A DNA stretch of 64,000 nt from a virus (taxonomy: Duplodnaviria; Caudoviricetes): IMG/VR virus record IMGVR_UViG_2974692648_000001, positions 173,510 to 237,509 of that record; one strand, given 5' to 3'. Under the pieces are notes generated by a model. That model was not told the origin of the DNA. It searched no databases and worked only from the letters and a program-made list of their open reading frames with translations. This document shows, one piece after another, positions 7,087 through 61,582 of this stretch; position 1 is the stretch's first letter; the number at the start of each line of letters is the position of its first letter. Made by a program: the position numbers and the translations under genes.

Positions 7087-7656
7087 ATGAAGGAAAACAC
7101 CATCAAGTTGGTGTTACTGGACGTGATCAAAGCTTACCACTCATACCTTGGAAACGAGGTATGGGAGGAAACCCTATTGAAAGCCAACAATGGGGATTGC
7201 ATCTGGATAGCTCAACTTACGGCGTATGTGCTCAGACATGCGTTTGATTTTTCGATAGACATACAGAGTTCCCCTCACCATACATTCTTAGTGTATGACG
7301 GAAAGGTTTACGATTCTCTTAACTTTAACGGCGGAGATGTATTCAGTCTCCCCTTTTACGGAGTATCAAGTAAATGTCGAAAGGAAGTTTCTCCTCTGGA
7401 TTACTTTCATTTGGAACCTTGGGATGAAGATATCTATTCGGTAATTCACCATGTATGTAATCATTATGGAATAATCCCCATGGGGAACGTGGGGTATGAT
7501 TTTGGGAATCCTAAACCCATCGCTATTATTAGTAGTGCGGAAGAACAAAATCGTTTAGAGATTATGGACATTGATGTTGAGTATCGAATTTCAGCTGGAT
7601 ACGAGACGGAACATGTGCATGTTGTTGAAGTTAAAGATAATAACCTAGGTAATTAA
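7087..7656 (+). CDS. putative transglutaminase/papain-fold protein (Cys-His-Asp)
   Basis: NNGDC...PHHTFLVYDGKVYD; paralogous to the N-terminus of 8044..9306. Confidence 0.5.
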   Translation: MKENTIKLVLLDVIKAYHSYLGNEVWEETLLKANNGDCIWIAQLTAYVLRHAFDFSIDIQSSPHHTFLVYDGKVYDSLNFNGGDVFSLPFYGVSSKCRKEVSPLDYFHLEPWDEDIYSVIHHVCNHYGIIPMGNVGYDFGNPKPIAIISSAEEQNRLEIMDIDVEYRISAGYETEHVHVVEVKDNNLGN

Positions 7657-7658
7657 GA

Positions 7659-8051
7659 ATGTTGTTCACAGTCGGTGCGTTAATTAAAAATGCGGAAGGT
7701 AAACTATTGATCCAAAATCATAAAAAGATTGGTGGGTTAACCATCCCTAGTGGTAAATTGGATGATAACGAACGTGACGTGGTTGGACTGACCCGAGAAT
7801 TGAAAGAGGAATTGGGCGTAACAACCCTTTGGGTTGGTAAGCGTTTAGGTAAGTGGCGACAGACCTACGAGGGTTTAGGTGTTGTCGATCAAGCTCTATA
7901 CGAAGTGGTGTTAAACGAAGAACCTCGAAACATGGAACCAAACAAACACACTTCCCAAACTTGGATGTCCATTGAGGAGATCAAATCAAGTGGGGAGAAA
8001 CTCAGCGGATATTTAACTAAAGTTTTAGAACTGGAGAAAACAAATGAGTAA
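7659..8051 (+). CDS. Nudix hydrolase
   Basis: Nudix box GKLDDNERDVVGLTRELKEELG (GX5EX7REUXEEXG). Confidence 0.9.
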   Translation: MLFTVGALIKNAEGKLLIQNHKKIGGLTIPSGKLDDNERDVVGLTRELKEELGVTTLWVGKRLGKWRQTYEGLGVVDQALYEVVLNEEPRNMEPNKHTSQTWMSIEEIKSSGEKLSGYLTKVLELEKTNE

Positions 8052-9306
8052 ACAAATTAAAGAATTAATGTACCAACTGGTCGATTCATTCTCGATTATT
8101 GCTAACCTTAAACACCATAAAGCGGTTCAGTATTTGAACAGCGGGCATTGTTACGCGGTGGCGACGTTAGCACAACACATCTTAAAAGAGAAATATGACA
8201 TCACAGTGAACTTGAAGTCTCACCCACATCATAGTTTCTTTGAATATGACGGTGTCTACTACGATACTTTGTTTCCGGTAGGTTATCCACTACACCCTTC
8301 TGAGGTGTGGCGTATGGAAGAGGCTCGGTGTCGTAAGACTTTAGATGACTGGGCGTTTGGAGAGTGCATGATGGTTAACCCAGACCCAACTATCATCGCT
8401 TGGGTGGAGTACGTTACGGAAAGACTCGGAATCAGTCAACCTAAGTTTTACTGGGAGATGATAGAAACTTTCGAAGATCGTTCTACTTATGATAAGAAAG
8501 CAACTCGTAAAGTCTACCATCACAAACTAGGCAAGTACCGTCGTAAGGTTAAACGTTACCGTCTCCGAGCATGGAAGTTCCGTAACGTAGAATGGAAAAC
8601 GTTCATGATTGGTTGGATGGCGGAGTTTACCCCTTATCCGGAAGATCTTTGGGTGGATTTAGAAGTCATTGAATACGATAAGTGGGTGAAGAAAGTAATC
8701 TCTACCGTTTACCCTCCTTACGAAGAAGTGATGGAGAAGTGTTTTGGTGACGATGTCTTTGACTCCCCTAATGTTCAAGCGATGGGTCGATTAAGTGACA
8801 TCTGTACAGGTGGTGAAGTGGGGTTTAAGCGGGACAACCTTTGGGGTGTATGTGCCAGCACTGGTCTCGAGTTAAGTGCTTCTATGGAAGTGAAGTCTCC
8901 TGTGGGACCCCTAGAGGTTTCGGAGGAAGTGGATAAAATACTGGAAGACGCAGCACAGCACTTGAATGAGAAACACCAACAGTCTAGTTTCCCTCGTGGT
9001 TGTTCTGCTAACGTCAAAATGTACGATGATGCTTGTTATCAACATTACATGAATGCACGGTCTGAAGCCCCAGGTCTTTTGAACTTGACATGTCATCACT
9101 GGAAGGTAATCGACGAGGCTTGCAAAAGAATAAAGGACGGGGAAGTCTTTGATCCTAAAAGAGTGCTTACATTAGGTTCACCTGATAAACTAGAAGATGA
9201 TCCTAAACGTGTACTCTTTGCCGTCGAAGATAACGAGGGTAAAGTGAGCTACACGAGTGATCGAGAAGCGTGGTTAAATAGGGACTCCGGTGACTGCGAG
9301 GAATAA
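8044..9306 (+). CDS. hypothetical protein with N-terminal transglutaminase-like (Cys-His-Asp) domain
   Basis: LNSGHC...PHHSFFEYDGVYYD; GGAG RBS. Confidence 0.55.
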   Translation: MSKQIKELMYQLVDSFSIIANLKHHKAVQYLNSGHCYAVATLAQHILKEKYDITVNLKSHPHHSFFEYDGVYYDTLFPVGYPLHPSEVWRMEEARCRKTLDDWAFGECMMVNPDPTIIAWVEYVTERLGISQPKFYWEMIETFEDRSTYDKKATRKVYHHKLGKYRRKVKRYRLRAWKFRNVEWKTFMIGWMAEFTPYPEDLWVDLEVIEYDKWVKKVISTVYPPYEEVMEKCFGDDVFDSPNVQAMGRLSDICTGGEVGFKRDNLWGVCASTGLELSASMEVKSPVGPLEVSEEVDKILEDAAQHLNEKHQQSSFPRGCSANVKMYDDACYQHYMNARSEAPGLLNLTCHHWKVIDEACKRIKDGEVFDPKRVLTLGSPDKLEDDPKRVLFAVEDNEGKVSYTSDREAWLNRDSGDCEE

Positions 9307-10568: not shown

Positions 10569-10970
10569 ATGGAAAACTTCATCTACAATGGGATCAACTA
10601 CATGGACCTTGTGAAAGCAAGCGTTGGTGAACACACTATCTATATCAGTAAATGGGATGTAGAAAAGAAGATCAAAAACGATGTTATTCAACTTACAGAA
10701 GAACGTCCAACTGAGTTCAACACAGAACTCCATATTGAAATTAACTTGACTATTTATTCAAGTGTGATTGTTCATGTGGTTGATTCCTTGCAAGCTCTGG
10801 AGATTGCTAAAGAGCTTTCTTCTAAGCTTAGTAAAGAAGTTACCATTTATTCACATGCTCGTCATTTAGCTCGATTCCTAAAAGGTGAGCAGGTCGGTCA
10901 GGTGAAAACATTGGACGATTTCTATACGAACATCACTGAAGAACAACGAGCACTGACTCGCTTAAAATAA
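10569..10970 (+). CDS. hypothetical protein
   Basis: AAGGA RBS, 133 aa. Confidence 0.7.
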   Translation: MENFIYNGINYMDLVKASVGEHTIYISKWDVEKKIKNDVIQLTEERPTEFNTELHIEINLTIYSSVIVHVVDSLQALEIAKELSSKLSKEVTIYSHARHLARFLKGEQVGQVKTLDDFYTNITEEQRALTRLK

Positions 10971-10985
10971 ACAGAATGCAGAAAA

Positions 10986-11038
10986 CCTCCTACTACCCAA
11001 TGGGTAGTAGGAGGAACCTTTCAGTTTATTTTTTTTTT
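10986..11038. terminator. bidirectional terminator between convergent genes
   Basis: CCTCCTACTACCCA-A-TGGGTAGTAGGAGG inverted repeat; long T tract downstream, A tract upstream. Confidence 0.85.
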
Positions 11039-11049
11039 CGTTCAGGTTA

Positions 11050-49406: not shown

Positions 49407-50198
49407 GTGAGTTATATGGACTTAGATGAATTTATTGATCAACATAATTTGGTGGGAGATCTTCTCAACAAAGATATGTTCGATCTTTATCAGAGCCTTC
49501 CTCACTATAGTCGGCCCACGTTTCTATATCCAATTCTTCTATCTAAGATAAAGGAAGATCCGGATTTTGAACTGTGGGAGCGTCACTATCAGTGGGATTT
49601 TATCAAAAAGGGTAAAAGAGGTCAAGGTTTCTTTGAATCCCCTCATCTGTTTATAAGTAGTCACGGTAGAGTGTATAACTCAAAGAGTGGTAACTTTCTC
49701 AAAGGGTCGACGAAAGGAGGTAAAGGTGATTACTTGAGACATAACGATACTATTTCAGGTAGGAACATTCGCATCCATCGTGCCGTCGCATGCATGTTTG
49801 TAGGTAACTATACAAACAAACCTTTAACTAAGTTGCTGGTCAATCATAAAGACCTAGATAAACAACATAATTTCTTTGCTAACCTCGAGTGGTGTACTCA
49901 AAAAGGTAACACTCACCACGCTATAGATGAACTAGGTAGCTTCTCTGTTCCTCGGGTTTATTACCTTTGTGAAGTTGTTAAAGGGGGTCAATTCCTCAAC
50001 CACAAATTCATCATTTCAGGTGAAGTTGATTGTAAGAAGTACCGGATGACTCATGCTTATTTAGCGGCTAAAGATGAAAATAAAACTTGCAATAACTGTA
50101 AAGTGGAGGTAATCGATAAGAGTGAAGTCGATGATAGGTTATTAATTAAAAACCAATCTAATCGATTCAAAGGTTGGTTAAAGAAACCTAAAAGATAA
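49407..50198 (+). CDS. free-standing HNH homing endonuclease (NUMOD4/I-HmuI-like)
   Basis: ISSHGRV, IHRAVA..F, VNHKD..K..N...NLEWCT.K.N..HA. Confidence 0.88.
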   Translation: MSYMDLDEFIDQHNLVGDLLNKDMFDLYQSLPHYSRPTFLYPILLSKIKEDPDFELWERHYQWDFIKKGKRGQGFFESPHLFISSHGRVYNSKSGNFLKGSTKGGKGDYLRHNDTISGRNIRIHRAVACMFVGNYTNKPLTKLLVNHKDLDKQHNFFANLEWCTQKGNTHHAIDELGSFSVPRVYYLCEVVKGGQFLNHKFIISGEVDCKKYRMTHAYLAAKDENKTCNNCKVEVIDKSEVDDRLLIKNQSNRFKGWLKKPKR

Positions 50199-50347
50199 TT
50201 AAAAACTAAGTGACATGTATTATATGTTACAAAACCTTTTTACCCCATTTTTATTGAACGGTTACTTTGTACTCTAAAATCTTGTTATTTTACCTGTTTT
50301 TTCATCGTTATTTTCACCCCTAAAAGTGAAAGGCGATGGGGAGAAAG

Positions 50348-50425
50348 AGGGGCAAGGTGATAGGGGCAAGGTGATAGGGGTGTCAAGGTTGAGTGGGTGT
50401 CAAGGTTAGTTGGTTCAAGTTAGTT
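50348..50425 (+). repeat. iteron-like tandem direct repeats
   Basis: AGGGGCAAGGTGAT x2, GGGTGTCAAGGTT x2, degenerate TCAAGTTAGTT; followed by a 27-nt pure A/T tract at 50449-50475. Confidence 0.75.
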
Positions 50426-50651
50426 AAAAGATTCGGGCAAAGCCCAAGATAATTAATATTAATATATTAATATATCTAACTATAGAGTATGACTTCCTTA
50501 CAACGTAACGAGTATCACGAGTGAAGTGGTTAAGGTAAAGAGTCATACGTTAAAGGTATAGATACATAGTAGGATGTCCGTTAAGGAGTCCTACTAGGGT
50601 TTATACTGCTTTTTAAATATTTAAGTTAAGATTAATTAAGGTTATTAGACC

Positions 50652-55815: not shown

Positions 55816-55905
55816 AGTTATTTTTCTAACGGACAATATATTATATGTACTAAACTAAATCCGTCGAAGACCCCCTAGAAAGGATGGGAAAGGGTTATTT
55901 TTGCA

Positions 55906-56020
55906 TACGAGTTATAGTAGTACTCCTTAGAGTGATCTATGAGGTACGAATAGTCACGGTGAGTGTTGTAGTACGAAGTACGTAAACACGATAAAAGGAG
56001 TGTACTACGTATAACGAGTA
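55906..56020 (+). other. branched structured non-coding element
   Basis: GTTATA/TATAAC, GTAGTAC/GTACTAC, ACTCCTT/AAGGAGT outer stem with two inner hairpins. Confidence 0.6.
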
Positions 56021-56076
56021 ATGTGATGTACGAGTCCATGTAATAGGGAAATGATCTAGTAGAAAAGAATTTTGGT

Positions 56077-56093
56077 TCTATATTACTTTAGGG
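56077..56093 (+). promoter_or_regulatory. putative phage early promoter
   Basis: TCTATATTACTTTAGGG containing TATTAC. Confidence 0.55.
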
Positions 56094-56152
56094 TAAATAA
56101 AACTGGATCATGTAAGTTATTAGTAAATAACGTTAGTAGGAGTAATTAGGAC

Positions 56153-57005: not shown

Positions 57006-58184
57006 ATGTCCATCGAGTTACCTATCGCTGAAGATCCAATCACAGCATTGACTTTTAAGAACATAGAAAAGTACTATAAGGAAAAGCGGAAGTTTACTGA
57101 TATCGCTAAAATTCAAAAGATTTGTCCCAACGCGATTACCAAACGTTTTGAAATCCAAGGGTTCGAAACCCCGGTGTACTACTTGAAAGAGTTACGTAAA
57201 GAGTTAGCTAAAACTTTAGTCACCGAAGGTGAGCTCTCATTGAGTGAGATAGCAAAAACCCTCGGTTACGATAAGACAATGAATTTCTACGTTTGGTACC
57301 AGTCTGTTTTTGGAGAACGTCCTACTAAAGTGCGAGCAAGAATGGGTCTTAAGTCTAAGACTCCGTGTCTAGGTGTGATCGACGCTATCGCTGAATCTAT
57401 TGCCTCAAAGATCGATCTCAACCCTAACCTTTACAAAAACGCCACTGAGCTCATGGAAGGTCACGAATATAGTGTCGTTTACATTAAGCGCACATTTATC
57501 AAAATGTACGGTAAGACACCTCGAGCTTATTTATTGGACCGACAACTAGAGTACGTTGCAGGCCAAATAAAGAATCACGGTTATAAGGAAAGTCGTTTAA
57601 TGGAAATGACCATGCATAACGCACCTACCGGACTCAATAAGGCTTTCAAAGCTAAGTACGGTATGACGACCAGTGATTACGGTGAATCTTTGTCGATCGG
57701 CACGTGGGCTAAAGTTCATGGTGAAAACGTGTGGGTGATGCCCTCACTTATGGATGAGATCTTGGACAACGTTACTGAGAACTTACTTGACGACCGCTTT
57801 AACCTTTACCAACTAAGAGACTTCTACGGCCTCAACTCACATTCTTGGGAACGAATGTTTAAGCTCTACACAGGCATGCTTCCAAGTAAGGCGCGTCAGT
57901 GTATTCGTTTAGAGTTAATCGTTTACTTCCTGCAAAACACCCGCTGGAAGTTCGCAAAGATCTTGAGAAAGGTTGGTTCTGATTATGAGTATGACGTCAG
58001 ACGACAAATGAAAGAATGTTACGGGTTGACTCCGGTTGAGATCCGTAAACTAAAAGGTCCACTTACCCGCTTTCATAATACGGAACAATTCGTTCGTTTT
58101 GTTAAATCCAACGCCGACCAATGTATCGAAGACGATAAGATTCGCTTAGAGAAAATCAAGGAAATTGAATTATGTACCCCGTAG
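57006..58184 (+). CDS. protein with three tandem AraC/MarA-like HTH domains
   Basis: TP..YL..LR...AK.L.....LSLSEIA..LGY....F...Y...FG..P pattern, repeated at GKTPRAYL...FKAKYGMT and F..YTG..P...YGLTP. Confidence 0.8.
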   Translation: MSIELPIAEDPITALTFKNIEKYYKEKRKFTDIAKIQKICPNAITKRFEIQGFETPVYYLKELRKELAKTLVTEGELSLSEIAKTLGYDKTMNFYVWYQSVFGERPTKVRARMGLKSKTPCLGVIDAIAESIASKIDLNPNLYKNATELMEGHEYSVVYIKRTFIKMYGKTPRAYLLDRQLEYVAGQIKNHGYKESRLMEMTMHNAPTGLNKAFKAKYGMTTSDYGESLSIGTWAKVHGENVWVMPSLMDEILDNVTENLLDDRFNLYQLRDFYGLNSHSWERMFKLYTGMLPSKARQCIRLELIVYFLQNTRWKFAKILRKVGSDYEYDVRRQMKECYGLTPVEIRKLKGPLTRFHNTEQFVRFVKSNADQCIEDDKIRLEKIKEIELCTP

Positions 58185-58897
58185 ATAAAGAATCCAGAAC
58201 TCGTTTAATGGATGATTTGGACAAATGGATAAGTGAACACTACCTAGAAAAAGTCACCGTCAAAGACTTAAGTCATCAACTAGGCGTGTACATTCCAGAT
58301 GTCTACCGTTTGTTTGCCGAGCAACGTAATACTACTCCTGGTGAATACCTTCGACGCAAACGCTTAGTCAAAGCCAAGTCTTTATTGGAGTCAGGAGTCA
58401 GACCAACGTTAGCCGGAGCCCACGTTGGTTATTCTCACTTTCAATCTTTCATCAAAGAGTACAAAGCTTTCTTTAAACGCCATCCTCGTGAGGATTATGT
58501 GGATTCCCTCGAGGTCCCGACTATGGATTCTTATTCTAAAGAAACTATGGACCGATATTATCCTAGTGAGTTGCGTGAGAAGATATTGGATCATTTGATT
58601 AAAAACATCAAAGTTAATTTTAATTACGCTGATGTAGAAAAGAAGTTTGGTTTACCAGATCGTAGCTTAAGCGAAATGTTTGAACACTATTACGGTAAAC
58701 CCTATCGTGAATGGAGAAAGGATACTAGGATGAAATTAGCTAAGGACTTGCTCCACAAAAATCCAAGTATTAAGATTGCTGACTTGGCGACTACTGTAGG
58801 TTCTTGTAGTGCGACCTATTTACGGAAGCAATACCAAGAAGTCTACGGAGTTAATATCGTTGAACTCCGGGAAACTTTGAGAGGCGCGTGTGTCTGA
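58172..58897 (+). CDS. protein with two tandem AraC/MarA-like HTH domains
   Basis: WISEHY...TPGEYLRRKRLVKAKSLL...VGYS...F; second copy GKPY..WR...RMKLAKDLL...KIADLA..VG. Confidence 0.85.
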   Translation: MYPVDKESRTRLMDDLDKWISEHYLEKVTVKDLSHQLGVYIPDVYRLFAEQRNTTPGEYLRRKRLVKAKSLLESGVRPTLAGAHVGYSHFQSFIKEYKAFFKRHPREDYVDSLEVPTMDSYSKETMDRYYPSELREKILDHLIKNIKVNFNYADVEKKFGLPDRSLSEMFEHYYGKPYREWRKDTRMKLAKDLLHKNPSIKIADLATTVGSCSATYLRKQYQEVYGVNIVELRETLRGACV

Positions 58898-59591
58898 TAA
58901 GAAATCCAGAGAGCTCAAGAAACTCAAAAATGCGGCTAAGAAATATTGTCTGGAGCCTAATGCCTCGGAATTAGTTTTAAAGAAAACGAGGATGACTCCC
59001 TCTAAAGTCATTAAAATATTCCGTGATACAGGGGAGGGGAGTTTGTATGATTACATTACCCATTTAAAAATGTTAGAGGCGAAGAAACTCTTAGATGACA
59101 CAGATCTTAACCTAACCTCTATTTCTAGAGCAATTGGGTATGCTAATCATAAATCGTTGAGAGAAAACTTCATCAAACAATTTGGTATGTATCCCTTGAA
59201 TTACCGCAACCGACCGAAGACCAACGACCTGGCTTGGGATTTGTTTAAAACTCATCCCAAGTTAACGGTACACCGTCAGACGTTTTTGCTAGATCATATC
59301 AAGAAACATTACAAAAGTTCTGATTTAAGCATCCAGACTCTATCGGACCGATTCCGTTTAACCCACCAAGAAATAGAACTGATTATCAAACACCATTATA
59401 GATTGGGATTGAAACAACTCTTATTAGACTTGCGTTTAAATCAAGCACATACCAAACTGCCTAATTACTATAAGCCATTGCGTCAACTCGCTGAGGAGTT
59501 AGGCTTCCTTGACTTTAGTTATTTCGTAGCGAAGTTCGAAGGGAAATATGGAATGGGACCTAAACGTTATCAACAACACGCACGTCTTTAA
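58890..59591 (+). CDS. protein with two tandem AraC/MarA-like HTH domains
   Basis: SLYDYI..LKM.EAKKLL.DTDL....IS.AIGY...FGMYP; second LRL.QA...LAEELGF.D.SYF..KF...YGMGP..Y. Confidence 0.85.
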   Translation: MSDKKSRELKKLKNAAKKYCLEPNASELVLKKTRMTPSKVIKIFRDTGEGSLYDYITHLKMLEAKKLLDDTDLNLTSISRAIGYANHKSLRENFIKQFGMYPLNYRNRPKTNDLAWDLFKTHPKLTVHRQTFLLDHIKKHYKSSDLSIQTLSDRFRLTHQEIELIIKHHYRLGLKQLLLDLRLNQAHTKLPNYYKPLRQLAEELGFLDFSYFVAKFEGKYGMGPKRYQQHARL

Positions 59592-59620
59592 ATTAATCTT
59601 TAACTCAGTGTACATTGTAT

Positions 59621-60189
59621 GTGAGCGGTACAAGATTAGGTTTAGCTAGACTAGCGTGTCCGAAAAGAAAAGGTGTATACCGCGAGTCCGACCTAGGAAG
59701 TTATTCCTTCATTACAACCGCTCACAGCTTACTCATATCGTGTTACGAGTATAAAGCGCAGATCGCCACCCCCATGGCGATCACTATTTTCAGTCCAGAA
59801 TGACGACCTGTATCCCTTGTCATCGATGTTAGTTACTTGTTCTGGACTGAACCCTATTTGATCTAATGCCTCCAAATGGTTTTCTCCCTGTGTTACACAG
59901 CCATCACCATTAGGTCAAATAACTAAACGGAAGCCGAGCCTTCTGTTTGTTGGACCGAGTTGCCTTTAACTCCTCGGTCCCCAGCGGTAAACCCCTTGAC
60001 CGCTATAAAAAAAGGAGAGCGTTTTCTGCCAGCTCCAACGCTCCAATAAAGGGATGCTACGCCGAGGCTAGCCGGCTGGGTTTTCGACCGCAAAAGACAA
60101 ATGTCTTTGAGAATCCAGTTCGGGTACTTTCAGCGAGGTACTGTGAAACACTGCTTTGACCATCCCGAAGCCCGGGATGGTACTTTTTT
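59621..60189 (+). ncRNA. candidate large structured non-coding RNA (~570 nt)
   Basis: At least 10 consecutive helices with plus-strand G-U pairs, no RBS-supported ORF, ends in an intrinsic terminator. Confidence 0.7.
60159..60189 (+). terminator. intrinsic terminator
   Basis: ACCATCCCG-aagcc-CGGGATGGT followed by T6. Confidence 0.85.
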
Positions 60190-60229
60190 GCATTTTAAAT
60201 ATTTTAGCTAAACTTTAAAGGAGTTTATT

Positions 60230-61195
60230 ATGTCTACATTACGTGCATGGTGTGTTGGTGGTGCGGGTATCAACATTGGTTCGGCATGGAACAAATCACT
60301 AAGAAATCTACCTTTAGCAAAAGTGGATTTCATTGGTCTAGATACGTCCATGAATAACCGTCCGGATGATGACGCCTTCACTGTCGAATCACCAGCAAAC
60401 ACCCGAGGTGGTGGTAAGAAGCGTACACTTAATCGTGACCTTATCCCAGACTTCGTAAAACAGATGCTTATCAAACACCGTCCAGGTGACTTCAACGTAG
60501 TCATCTACAGTGGTGCAGGTGCGTCAGGTTCTACGATTGGTCCTTACTTGGTTCGTGCGCTTATGGAAGCCGGTGTTCCAGTGGTTTCTTTCTTAGTTTT
60601 GGATCAAACTACAGACATCGAGTTTGAAAACACACTCGCAACCCTTCGCTCTCTGGATGGTCAACGTAAGTATTTCAACCAACCAGTCGTTCTAGATGTA
60701 TTAGAGAACAATGAGCGAATGAATCGTGGTCAGATGAACGAACTCGCGGTAGAGCGATTAAACCTACTCAGCTTGTTCTTAACCGATGTTCATGAGGAAT
60801 CCGACTACGAAGATGTTCGTCACTTACTGAACTACTCTAGTGCGATCGATATTCCACCTGCACTAACTCGTATTGAGTACTATGATGGTCAAACCATCGA
60901 CCAACGTCAAGGTGTTGCAGTAGCGAGTTTCTCTCTTTACTCTCACCGTAACGATATCCGTTCTGTACAGATTGGTAAGAGTTACCGTGTGACAGGTGTT
61001 ATGCACCCAGACACAATCACCCCTAACAAAACAGGTGAGTTACACATGATGTTAGAGTACGATAGTGTGACCGACCAACTTATCGAAGACCTACAGCGTT
61101 CTGAGCAACAAGCAGCAGAGCGTCAAGCACAGTTTCACAAGACCCGTGCTAAAGACCTCACAGAAGACGCTGATGGCGATTCAATGTGCTGGTAA
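60230..61195 (+). CDS. phuZ: phage tubulin PhuZ
   Basis: GGAGINIG, DTS, GGGK.R, tubulin signature variant SGAGASGSTIGP, acidic C-terminal tail; 321 aa. Confidence 0.92.
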   Translation: MSTLRAWCVGGAGINIGSAWNKSLRNLPLAKVDFIGLDTSMNNRPDDDAFTVESPANTRGGGKKRTLNRDLIPDFVKQMLIKHRPGDFNVVIYSGAGASGSTIGPYLVRALMEAGVPVVSFLVLDQTTDIEFENTLATLRSLDGQRKYFNQPVVLDVLENNERMNRGQMNELAVERLNLLSLFLTDVHEESDYEDVRHLLNYSSAIDIPPALTRIEYYDGQTIDQRQGVAVASFSLYSHRNDIRSVQIGKSYRVTGVMHPDTITPNKTGELHMMLEYDSVTDQLIEDLQRSEQQAAERQAQFHKTRAKDLTEDADGDSMCW

Positions 61196-61288: not shown

Positions 61289-61582
61289 ATGAGTAAAACT
61301 TGTATTCGAGTCATTTCCGTGACTCTTAACGAATTTACAGAGTTCATGAAAGACGAACAATCCGTTTTTAATGGAATTGCACTCGTCCAAGAAACTTTAA
61401 CTGATTTGGGATACCATGTCACAAATCGTCACTTAATAACTGGGGATGAAGCCTCGCTTTACCCAGTCAAACTTTTCATTAAAACCGCACTAGAGGGACA
61501 GACCAATGGAATACCTACTAACGTCAACGTTATGGTAAGACCGGCAAGTCCTGGGTGCTACGCTGTTATGTTTTTCAAATAA
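61289..61582 (+). CDS. hypothetical protein
   Basis: GGGA RBS, 97 aa. Confidence 0.65.
   Translation: MSKTCIRVISVTLNEFTEFMKDEQSVFNGIALVQETLTDLGYHVTNRHLITGDEASLYPVKLFIKTALEGQTNGIPTNVNVMVRPASPGCYAVMFFK

Follow-up and report, generated by a model that had tools for sequence, protein, structure and literature searches.

A predicted large structured non-coding RNA, bounded by a start motif and a terminator, in Aphroditevirus and Tidunavirus phages

The window, that is, the whole 64-kb stretch of DNA analysed here, is the right end of the 237.5-kb genome of a jumbo Vibrio phage of the genus Aphroditevirus, a group termed nucleus-forming in the literature. Within it, a gap of 638 nt (59592-60229) separates a trio of AraC-type regulator genes from phuZ, and the RNA candidate sits in this gap (Table 1). 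The regulators match Pfam HTH_18 (E 1.7e-25 to 3.7e-26) and PHROG 7620, "transcriptional regulator". The tubulin gene is assigned by PHROG 4733, "tubulin PhuZ" (E 9e-95); its match to Pfam Tubulin (E 6e-6) is below the family cut-off. The spacer ahead of phuZ carries TAAATATTT (60196-60204), which corresponds to the 5' half of the early-promoter-like consensus in this phage, together with the phuZ ribosome-binding site GGAG (60220-23). ARAGORN reports no tRNA or tmRNA gene in the 64-kb window, in agreement with the earlier note, which had seen no tRNA or tmRNA ends in the candidate.

Table 1. Features of the RNA locus, in window coordinates
Feature	Coordinates	Strand	Remarks
Three tandem AraC-type (HTH_18) regulator genes	57006..59591 (57006-58184, 58172-58897, 58890-59591)	+	directly 5' of the RNA
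Promoter-like motif ATTGTATG	59614..59621	+	predicted RNA start G59621, the G of TATG (59618-21)
Whole predicted RNA, ~569 nt	59621..60189	+	from G59621 through the U-run
5' domain, closed by P1 (59621-29 with 59717-25)	59621..59725	+	apical hairpin carries GGUGUAUACC
Hp2 (59727-57), conserved AUAAAGCGCA, Hp3 (59761-68 with 59775-82)	59727..59782	+	
Hp4, long hairpin, loop with CCCUUGUCAUCGAUG	59789..59851	+	
Hp5, 14-bp hairpin in the variable module	59855..59921	+	pairs as the earlier note had them
Hp6 (59925-48), Hp7 (59952-80, loop GCCUUUAAC), Hp8 (59983-60004, loop with ACCCC), A-rich linker, Hp9 (60017-43, loop with CAGCUCC)	59925..60043	+	
Hp10, long irregular hairpin with invariant AGCCGGCUG and AGUUCGG(G/A)U strands	60060..60135	+	core common to both genera
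CACUGC, unpaired stretch	60149..60154	+	invariant in 7/7 sequences
Intrinsic terminator	60159..60189	+	9-bp stem (6 G-C pairs), 5-nt loop, AC, six U
40-nt spacer	60190..60229	+	nearly invariant among aligned phages
phuZ (tubulin)	60230..61195	+	downstream neighbour, outside the RNA

Searches by blastn identified the region in five other Aphroditevirus phages (8 records including duplicates), four of which entered an alignment with the window. Trained on Aphroditevirus sequences only, a covariance model then finds two members of Tidunavirus, VP4B (39.7 bits, E 7e-9) and pTD1 (21.3 bits, E 1e-3). Both matches occur at the syntenic place, after the same trio of AraC-type genes, and the upstream neighbour is therefore kept in both genera. 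Neither Tidunavirus record (0/2) has a PhuZ match, and Tidunavirus is described as having lost phuZ in the available part of PMC11724907. The RNA, its terminator and the AT-rich element that follows are nevertheless kept there without phuZ, with pTD1 showing a similar TTTTTTGC...ATTTTTAGCTA after the terminator, so the RNA is not tied to phuZ. The homologs measure approximately 570, 428, 428, 572, 476 and 493 nt (alignment lengths minus flanking bases), and no open reading frame is common across the lineages.

Both ends of the element are marked by sequence motifs. The 5' end placed at 59621 in the earlier note proves to be the G of a conserved TATG; this motif and the T following it are invariant in the five aligned phages, and TATG is also present in VP4B and pTD1. 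Late promoters of phiKZ contain TATG, with the nvRNAP starting at the G as +1, according to the portion of PMC4666361 available. TATG at 59618-21 may be a promoter by the same rule, which is borrowed from a phage of a different genus and applied to a short motif. Nine ATTRTATG sites occur in the 237.5-kb genome, seven of them outside ORFs. The three in the window all fall 20-24 nt inside long non-coding gaps; only this placement is unusual, as the motif is not commoner in the window than in shuffles (3 observed vs 4.0 expected). At other sites in this phage, 125-433 nt of non-coding sequence separate the motif from a gene. At the 3' end, both genera share the terminator stem ACCAUC(C/U)C, in which one pair shows compensation.

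The plus strand from 59595 to 60195 folds with a minimum free energy of -199.5 kcal/mol, whereas shuffles average -156.3 (z -6.21), and none of 20 shuffles is as good; for the minus strand z is -2.76, and one of 20 shuffles is as good. A separate script applied to the whole gap (59592-60229, 15 shuffles) gave z -5.2 for the plus strand and -4.9 for the minus strand, a difference so small that the z-score alone is insufficient to fix the strand. The RNA strand is also the better folding one in VP4B (z -4.3 vs -2.9) and pTD1 (z -9.1 vs -6.2). What fixes the strand as plus is the combination of conserved G-U pairs with two plus-strand signals, the TATG motif at one end and the terminator at the other. 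The G-U pairs, which become A-C mismatches on the minus strand and had been the original argument for a plus-strand RNA, persist in every aligned sequence (pairs 151-217, 160-208, 169-199 and 172-196 of alignment A2, for instance). Ten of the eleven helical items first listed for this element were checked, namely nine coordinate-defined helices plus the terminator (60159-67/60173-81, coordinates from the terminator prediction), and all of them pair, with 88 Watson-Crick and 4 G-U pairs among 92 and no mismatch. The eleventh, a local hairpin at 60056-72, consists of 4 pairs by eye (GCUA/UAGC), and covarying long-range pairs compete for the same bases; this segment has two alternative pairings, both compensated between the genera (one event only).

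In the 5' domain, P1 begins at +1 (TATG G) in 7/7 sequences and comprises 6-9 contiguous pairs in four sequence versions. RNAalifold predicts 30 pairs for the domain, 4 of them changed on both sides. A covariance model of this domain, R2, found neither of the Tidunavirus copies (0/2; VP4B, pTD1), and the cross-genus homology of the 5' half consequently rests on the position of P1, on GGTGTATACCGC, which is also found in VP4B, and on AUAAAGCGCA. A global MAFFT alignment of the seven RNAs handles the Tidunavirus middle part poorly, and cross-genus statements about Hp2-Hp6 come from inspection of motifs and folds. ATAAAG[CT]GC followed by a hairpin is present in 5/7 sequences and missing in USC-1 and Aphrodite1, and the stem that follows it differs in sequence among window/TSL2, phiKT1019, VP4B and pTD1. 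Hp5 is present in TSL2, present with a different sequence in phiKT1019, and absent from USC-1 and Aphrodite1. For Hp4, 100% of cells are paired across 11 pairs, 4 of which changed on both sides, a count attained in 15 of 500 shuffles; slid controls are 6-52% paired, and the loop motif CCCTTGT is found in VP4B and pTD1 as well.

Across 65 pairs of the 3' domain in the five aligned phages, 95.4% of cells are paired, and changes on both sides are seen at 9 of these pairs. No shuffle of 500 reaches either value, and slid controls are 32-50% paired. Changes on both sides affect one pair of Hp6, four of Hp7 and one of Hp9, while Hp8 never varies; the loops of Hp6-Hp9 are invariant in 5/5 Aphroditevirus sequences, and this part has no recognisable counterpart in Tidunavirus (VP4B, pTD1). 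Hp10 contributes 24 pairs in the same five phages (95.8% paired, 3 changed on both sides), and its 16 core pairs are all kept in 7/7 sequences, except for one gap column in 3 sequences. When VP4B and pTD1 are added, in a seven-sequence alignment (A8) fitted to the model, 37 pairs are tested; 96.1% are paired and 8 changed on both sides, a result reached by 1 of 500 shuffles. These covariation counts rest on few events, because there are only about five independent lineages and the shuffle control ignores relatedness. Two strings, AGCCGGCT (invariant in 7/7 sequences) and CATCGATG, are palindromes.

Comparison of homologs, which had been put forward as a check on the candidate, thus finds helices with compensatory changes in the 5' domain, in Hp4 and in the 3' domain. 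With an end at a terminator and no conserved frame, these compensated helices support the claim of a plus-strand structured ncRNA of about 570 nt.

Within the window, no match attains an Rfam gathering score. In the interval 59500-60300, three weak matches appear at E<=10 (best E 1.8), none of them to ROOL, GOLLD or OLE, and four homologous loci return no match at E<=1. The absence of any recognisable intron or RNase P motif likewise stands: Rfam models for group I and II introns, RNase P RNA, 6S RNA and riboswitch aptamers are unmatched, the PreQ1 aptamer scoring 14.3 bits (E 5.2), where its gathering score is 39. The earlier note had also remarked that the size recalls ROOL or OLE with no match in sequence; similar size and lack of a sequence match both hold, and the likeness goes no further than size. 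Among the titles listed by a literature search under phage and genus names, none is about an RNA from these phages.

The distribution appears to be narrow. Covariance model R1 matched only terminators at the phuZ loci of seven chimalliviruses and gave nothing convincing on the whole genomes of Miami and RisingSun. A shorter model, R3, found nothing at E<0.1 in any of seven other chimallivirus genomes, the best score being that of AH04 (16.4 bits, E 0.38). Three short strings upstream of phuZ in the Erwinia phage RisingSun, arranged in the same order, were considered as a possible homolog and rejected as chance, since the local alignment scores 21 against a shuffle mean of 20.6 and chains of at least three collinear 7-mers arise in 415 of 500 shuffles. 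Motif-pattern scans of IMG/VR returned 17, >106, 5, 4 and 4 stretches and added no homologs; an nhmmer profile run over 136 loci from the first three scans recovered only copies of known phages (15 rows). The sole new IMG/VR stretch belongs to a G+C-rich contig, where it is part of a coding region, and R3 does not match it at E<=1. In JGI metagenomes the motif-pattern scan gave no stretches, and a scan with a PhuZ profile gave 119 stretches with one relative, which is Miami-like. The single stretch from GTDB genomes (13.7 bits, G+C 0.68) was taken as chance. Logan runs containing a fraction of 0.3-0.8 of the sampled words harbour near relatives. One RNA run had no reads on the window, a result that bears on expression in neither direction. 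Two runs, X19 and X20, whose RNA nature is a guess, yielded one contig each, of 169 and 179 nt, wholly inside the RNA and none on its flanks; the runs had been picked with words from this region, so nothing about expression follows from these contigs.

These results make it very probable that the gap encodes a real plus-strand structured RNA belonging to a new family. The explanation that we favour for the locus as a whole, with a probability of roughly 55%, is a new ncRNA family restricted to the Gorgonvirinae (Aphroditevirus plus Tidunavirus), delimited by a terminator and predicted to work as a free, protein-binding RNA. The phage's non-virion RNA polymerase would start at G59621 of the TATG promoter, and the nascent transcript would adopt three parts: the 5' domain closed by P1, a cassette in which long simple hairpins vary between phages, and the conserved 3' domain containing Hp10 and CACUGC. 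Release at the intrinsic terminator, 40 nt before phuZ, would leave a free RNA of about 570 nt, which would presumably accumulate. Its invariant loops and internal loops may bind one or more proteins, the RNA serving as a scaffold or decoy rather than by pairing with a target. This trans-acting, protein-binding mode is a tentative proposal that could well turn out otherwise. Base-pairing is disfavoured because, elsewhere in the phage genome, no complementarity exceeds 14 nt (E 0.42), and that longest one lies within a variable hairpin. Pairing of the Hp7 loop, or of the CAGCUCC/CCUCC loops, with ribosome-binding sites was considered and rejected: the complement of the phuZ site is not conserved in USC-1 or phiKT1019 (by eye), and matches of 4-5 nt are expected by chance.

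The same structure could instead be a cis-acting leader, a long 5' UTR of the downstream operon (phuZ and the genes that follow) in which the terminator is a conditional stop, the structure senses a signal or loads a factor, and the free RNA is a by-product. Attenuation and riboswitch-like leaders share the general layout, in which genes are immediately preceded by a structured RNA with an intrinsic terminator at its end, and are typically several times smaller. The RNA here is directly upstream of, and co-directional with, the same operon in both genera; other ATTRTATG sites of this phage also precede non-coding stretches ahead of a gene; and the two pairings available to 60056-72, with their single compensated event, fit a leader as well. 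In the available portions of PMC10914365 and PMC11512511, phiKZ and 201phi2-1 are described as having 5' UTRs where a start site followed by a terminator yields an abundant short RNA and a minority of read-through mRNA. The RNA is kept, however, in a genus that has lost the first downstream gene, with a 97-aa gene standing where phuZ would be. No conserved antiterminator was seen by eye: the candidate pairing GGGAUG 60051-56/CAUCCC 60162-67 is possible in 4/5 Aphroditevirus sequences, weakened in phiKT1019 and not seen in VP4B or pTD1. The terminator, moreover, is strong, and the nearly invariant AT-rich element after it, with half of an early-promoter-like consensus, could start the operon by itself. 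Finally, 570 nt is far above the length of known leaders of this kind, which are below 250 nt in the portions of PMC10914365 and PMC11512511 available. We consider the leader unlikely, although it is the chief competitor of the free-RNA reading.

Viewed from the upstream side, the element might be a structured 3' UTR of the AraC-type regulator operon: mRNAs of the three genes would continue into it and end at its terminator, and the structure would shield them against 3' decay or be cleaved away as a 3'-UTR-derived RNA. From the stop of the third regulator gene (59591) to the RNA there is no terminator-like site, and the regulator triplet with the RNA is the one neighbourhood that both genera keep. 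Yet the structure begins exactly at the conserved TATG G in 7/7 sequences, which fits a start site of its own, and a single hairpin suffices to form a 3' end, compared with about 570 nt carrying covarying domains. A 3' UTR is thus an improbable account of the element, and one that is not exclusive of a free RNA.

Two or more separate small RNAs, such as a 5' RNA of about 165 nt ending at Hp3, are suggested by the listing of Hp3 plus ACTATTTTCA as terminator-like; but the U-rich tail is lost in phiKT1019, Hp2 and Hp3 are both missing in USC-1 and Aphrodite1 while the domains on either side stay, and no second start motif is seen inside, all of which makes such a division very improbable. Least credible is an element acting as DNA (a replication origin, a packaging signal or a cluster of protein-binding palindromes), for which the many perfect inverted repeats, the palindromes AGCCGGCT and CATCGATG and the minus-strand z of -4.9 in one measurement might be cited, given that conserved G-U pairs and one-sided changes from G-C or A-U to G-U would be mismatches in cruciforms and on the other strand, that a plus-strand start motif and a plus-strand terminator frame the element, and that the hairpins each differ in sequence, leaving no repeated binding site.

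Returning to the free RNA of a Gorgonvirinae family, a further and more speculative step can be sketched, which we rate as rather improbable. The RNA might be a dedicated component of the nucleus-forming infection cycle, as an RNA-only or RNA-protein assembly that possibly self-associates via the invariant palindromes AGCCGGCU and CAUCGAUG, like the cages of ROOL and GOLLD; it would be made in the phage nucleus and act on transcript handling, export or host takeover. If so, it would be the first large functional ncRNA of a chimallivirus.

Nucleus-forming jumbo phages are studied because they keep transcription and translation apart, and with a view to aquaculture phage therapy; the ncRNAs known from them are few, short and from Pseudomonas phages only. 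No structured RNA known from these phages would be larger or better conserved than the one proposed here, whose folds are kept across two genera, and it survived the loss of the neighbouring tubulin gene. Its defined ends and conserved loops offer a concrete target for work on the role of the RNA in the infection cycle, and it would join the few families of large structured RNAs whose function is unknown.

ROOL and GOLLD are often carried by phages or prophages. Their usual neighbours are tRNA arrays, and those of OLE are ole-associated protein genes; the neighbours here, in contrast, are AraC-type regulator genes and phuZ, in a window free of tRNA genes. The present RNA resembles ROOL, GOLLD and OLE in belonging to the class of several hundred nucleotides, in having many conserved helices, in being non-coding, and in showing no biochemical function that can be read from sequence. 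It differs in architecture, being mostly a string of hairpins where those RNAs have large multi-way junctions, and in a distribution confined to one phage subfamily. ROOL, GOLLD and OLE are described as "ornate" large RNAs, bacterial and phage-associated, that form homo-oligomers by cryo-EM in the available text of PMC12286853.

A closer parallel in setting is provided by the ncRNAs of phiKZ and 201phi2-1, which are likewise structured, occur in nucleus-forming jumbo phages, and arise where a phage promoter and then an intrinsic terminator stand just ahead of a co-directional gene, an arrangement that is predicted from sequence here. Models R1 and R3 found no match in Pseudomonas phage EL and six other chimalliviruses. 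The excerpts of PMC10914365 and PMC11512511 available describe those ncRNAs as found by ONT-cappable-seq and shorter than 250 nt (71, 141 and 196 nt), with one of this type conserved by position across genera. The RNA of Aphroditevirus and Tidunavirus, known here from its sequence, is by comparison approximately 428-572 nt in length and is built around two compound domains that covary.

The source record is 237,509 bp long and carries terminal repeats; the window covers its bases 173510-237509. Its nearest relatives, all Vibrio phages, belong to Aphroditevirus, a genus of the subfamily Gorgonvirinae; this clade is treated as nucleus-forming chimalliviruses in the available portion of PMC11724907. 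The predicted RNA occurs once in its own genome.

Features of the RNA locus, and other gaps and sites observed (positions are in the window unless stated)
Feature	Position	Strand	Remarks
Second structured non-coding region	50199-50651	+	z -5.5
Third non-coding gap	55816-56152	+	z -3.0
Three tandem AraC-type HTH genes	57006-59591		upstream of RNA; Pfam HTH_18, E ~1e-25
Intergenic gap housing the RNA	59592-60229		638 nt
Predicted structured RNA	59621-60189	+	about 569 nt
Palindrome CATCGATG	59819-59826		perfect; invariant in 5/5 Aphroditevirus
Palindrome AGCCGGCT	60069-60076		perfect; invariant in 7/7 sequences
Intrinsic terminator			predicted RNA 3' end, textbook type; 9-bp stem (6 G-C), 5-nt loop, six T
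phuZ (tubulin)	60230-61195		downstream of RNA; PHROG 4733, E 9e-95
Strongly folding intergenic gap	10734-11049	both	z -6.4 (+), -6.2 (-)
Strongly folding intergenic gap	7644-8169 of own full genome (G000:C1)	both	z -3.9 (+), -2.4 (-)
Strongly folding intergenic gap	114938-115361 of G000:C1		z -5.0 (+), -0.5 (-)
Gap 5' of phuZ, Pseudomonas phage EL	L143 2393-2898	both	506 nt; folds beyond shuffles, z -6.5 and -5.4 (two strands)
Unannotated ORF, VP4B	L153 3738-4030		homolog of window 61289-61582 (97 aa)

The RNA locus carries a conserved plus-strand fold that has sequence-defined boundaries, is non-coding, and is independent of phuZ. Ten of the eleven items in the helix list of an earlier note were checked, namely nine coordinate-defined helices plus the terminator (its coordinates taken from terminator prediction rather than from that note), and all pair as proposed, with 92 pairs comprising 88 Watson-Crick and 4 G-U and no mismatches. 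For the local hairpin listed at 60056-72, four pairs can be drawn by eye, and long-range pairs are an alternative for the same segment, one U-to-C change (a single event) being compensated in both. For 59595-60195 (+), the minimum free energy is -199.5 kcal/mol versus -156.3 for dinucleotide shuffles (z -6.2, equaled by 0 of 20), while the minus strand gives z -2.8. A second measurement, over the whole gap with 15 shuffles, showed a smaller strand contrast (z -5.2 for plus, -4.9 for minus), and the strand call is therefore not based on z-scores. Several G-U pairs are conserved in every aligned Aphroditevirus sequence, and several pairs in the 3' domain alternate in this genus solely among G-C, G-U and A-U; both patterns fit the plus-strand RNA that had been proposed, and fit neither the minus strand nor DNA.

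A blastn search returned eight records representing five phages: 2 TSL-2019 (96% identity), USC-1, 5 TSL-2019, Aphrodite1 and phiKT1019. The alignment with the window took in all but 5 TSL-2019. About 140 nt (Hp2, Hp3 and Hp5, hairpins being numbered from the 5' end) are missing from USC-1 and Aphrodite1, and phiKT1019 retains every hairpin with strongly altered sequences. The covariation counts draw on about five independent lineages only: RNAalifold assigns 80 pairs to the 3' domain, of which 10 changed on both sides, and 30 to the 5' domain, of which 4 did; among 65 hand-fixed pairs of the 3' domain, 95.4% of cells are paired and 9 pairs show two-sided changes, neither value being reached in any of 500 shuffles; and Hp4 has 11 pairs, 100% of cells paired, with both sides changed in 4. 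Sliding the partner by 1-3 columns, as a control for the 3' domain, lowers pairing to 32-50%.

P1, the helix closing the 5' domain, has as its first base G59621, the last position of a TATG that never varies among the aligned relatives and also occurs in both Tidunavirus copies. The phiKZ non-virion RNA polymerase requires TATG and initiates at its G, according to the available passages of PMC4666361 and PMC7598289, and by analogy with this phiKZ rule the RNA would start at G59621. The longer motif ATTRTATG has nine sites in the phage's own genome, which is about 94% coding, and seven lie outside ORFs. Within the window it is not enriched by count (3 versus 4.0 expected); its placement alone is unusual, with 3/3 sites located 20-24 nt into long non-coding gaps. 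An early-promoter-like consensus, TAAATATTTT-N4-CCTATAT[TA]AC[TC]TAGGT, is found 5' of several genes in this genome (G000:C1 3905, 147262, 171536 and others). The sequence CTATATTAC has six sites there, all on the plus strand and five of them 49-75 nt 5' of a gene start. About 17 nt 5' of the RNA's TATG, Tidunavirus has CTATATAAC.

No ORF is common to the lineages compared, and one-base indels fall within conserved parts of the RNA. The claim that the RNA belongs to no known family agrees with Rfam 15, which gave no match in the window at gathering score, three weak chance-level matches only in the RNA region (best E 1.8), and none at E<=1 on four homologous loci. ARAGORN likewise found no tRNA or tmRNA, as anticipated.

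R1, a covariance model trained on the Aphroditevirus 3' core only, gives a single match apiece in the two Tidunavirus genomes: VP4B scores 39.7 bits (E 7e-9) and pTD1 21.3 bits (E 1e-3). Both sites lie directly 3' of the three AraC-type genes. The RNAs there open with TACTATG, followed by a P1 of new sequence, and close with a terminator almost identical in its stem to that in the window. P1 starts at TATG G in 7/7 sequences and comes in four versions: GUGAGCGGU/ACCGCUCAC, GUAAGCGAU/GUCGCUUAC, GUGGGU/ACCCAC and GUGGUGAGA/UCUCACCAC. The seven-sequence alignment, which is model-fitted and so biased to the model, has 37 pairs, 96.1% paired; in 8 of them both partners changed, as in 1 of 500 shuffles. 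Because R2, the model of the 5' domain, found neither Tidunavirus copy, homology of the 5' half across genera is suggested by position and short motifs. Neither Tidunavirus record has a PhuZ match, and the genus likewise lacks phuZ according to the available part of PMC11724907; since Tidunavirus keeps the RNA, the RNA occurs in phages that have no phuZ. In Tidunavirus the RNA is followed by the homolog of window 61289-61582, and the stretch immediately 5' of that gene matches the window's phuZ-downstream spacer. With this homolog unannotated in VP4B, the annotated gap there appears as 941 nt.

Common to both genera are the TATG start; P1 enclosing a 5' domain of about 100 nt with GGUGUAUACCGC near its tip; AUAAAGCGCA, then Hp3; Hp4 with CCCUUGU in its loop; the Hp10 core, AGCCGGCUG...AGUUCGG(G/A)U, with G opposite G; and, at the 3' end, unpaired CACUGC and the terminator. 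Variation affects the count of long simple hairpins (Hp2, Hp3 and Hp5 are gained or lost), the Hp7-Hp9 block, which is confined to Aphroditevirus, and the Hp10 tip. The two palindromes could, by their sequence, act in RNA-RNA self-association or as DNA sites. The AraC-type proteins are tandem paralogs with two or three HTH_18 matches apiece; the gene triplet adjoins the RNA in both genera, and the phage supplies RNA polymerases of its own.

R1 and a further covariance model, R3, gave no convincing match in the genomes of seven other chimalliviruses (Miami, RisingSun, ZPAH34, FishSpeaker, AH04, OBP, EL), and motif-pattern scans of IMG/VR, JGI metagenomes and GTDB genomes added no member. A likeness in RisingSun was tested and rejected as chance. 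Public DNA runs on samples of the aquaculture type contain near-identical copies, which means that close relatives are common there. The EL gap matches neither R1 nor R3 and may be a positional analogue of the RNA.

The second structured region of the window follows directly on an HNH endonuclease gene (49407-50198). It begins with ATTATATG at 50219 and ends with CTGCTTTTTAAATATTT, 38 nt 5' of the next start codon; over its bases 178-354, identity with VP4B and pTD1 is about 88%, making it wider in sequence conservation than the RNA. The third gap has ATTATATG at its start (55840), with the next gene 313 nt on.

A phage polymerase would transcribe the RNA from TATG, and release at the intrinsic terminator would yield a free, stable product. 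We tentatively favor, at a probability of roughly 0.4, action in trans through one or more bound proteins, because loops and internal loops are most conserved, rather than long single strands, because complementarity to other parts of the phage genome does not exceed 14 nt, and because the cassette of hairpins withstands gains and losses. The main rival, a cis-acting leader with conditional termination, we consider less likely. Shorter leaders of this kind are described for phiKZ and 201phi2-1 in the available text of PMC10914365 and PMC11512511, and the constant position of the RNA 5' of the same operon would suit such a role, but the RNA is retained after loss of the first downstream gene, the terminator is strong, by-eye inspection found no conserved antiterminator, and an almost invariant AT-rich element, which carries half of the early-promoter-like consensus, lies 3' of the terminator and is kept in pTD1. 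Lesser alternatives to a trans-acting RNA are that the element serves as the 3' UTR of the regulator operon, that it acts at the level of DNA, or that the locus makes several small RNAs instead of one.

In its predicted mode of production, the RNA most resembles the 5'-UTR RNAs of giant Pseudomonas phages, which are delimited by terminators, but it is two to eight times larger, with compound covarying domains; it has no sequence or model match to anything in the set searched, which was without phiKZ and 201phi2-1. It is without the usual neighbors of ROOL, GOLLD and OLE. These families resemble it in size and in the absence of an assigned function, going by the available part of PMC12286853, but their models do not match it. 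Because of this failed match, and because its size and covarying domains are unlike those of the 5'-UTR RNAs, we file it as a probable new family within the phage-encoded structured non-coding RNAs.
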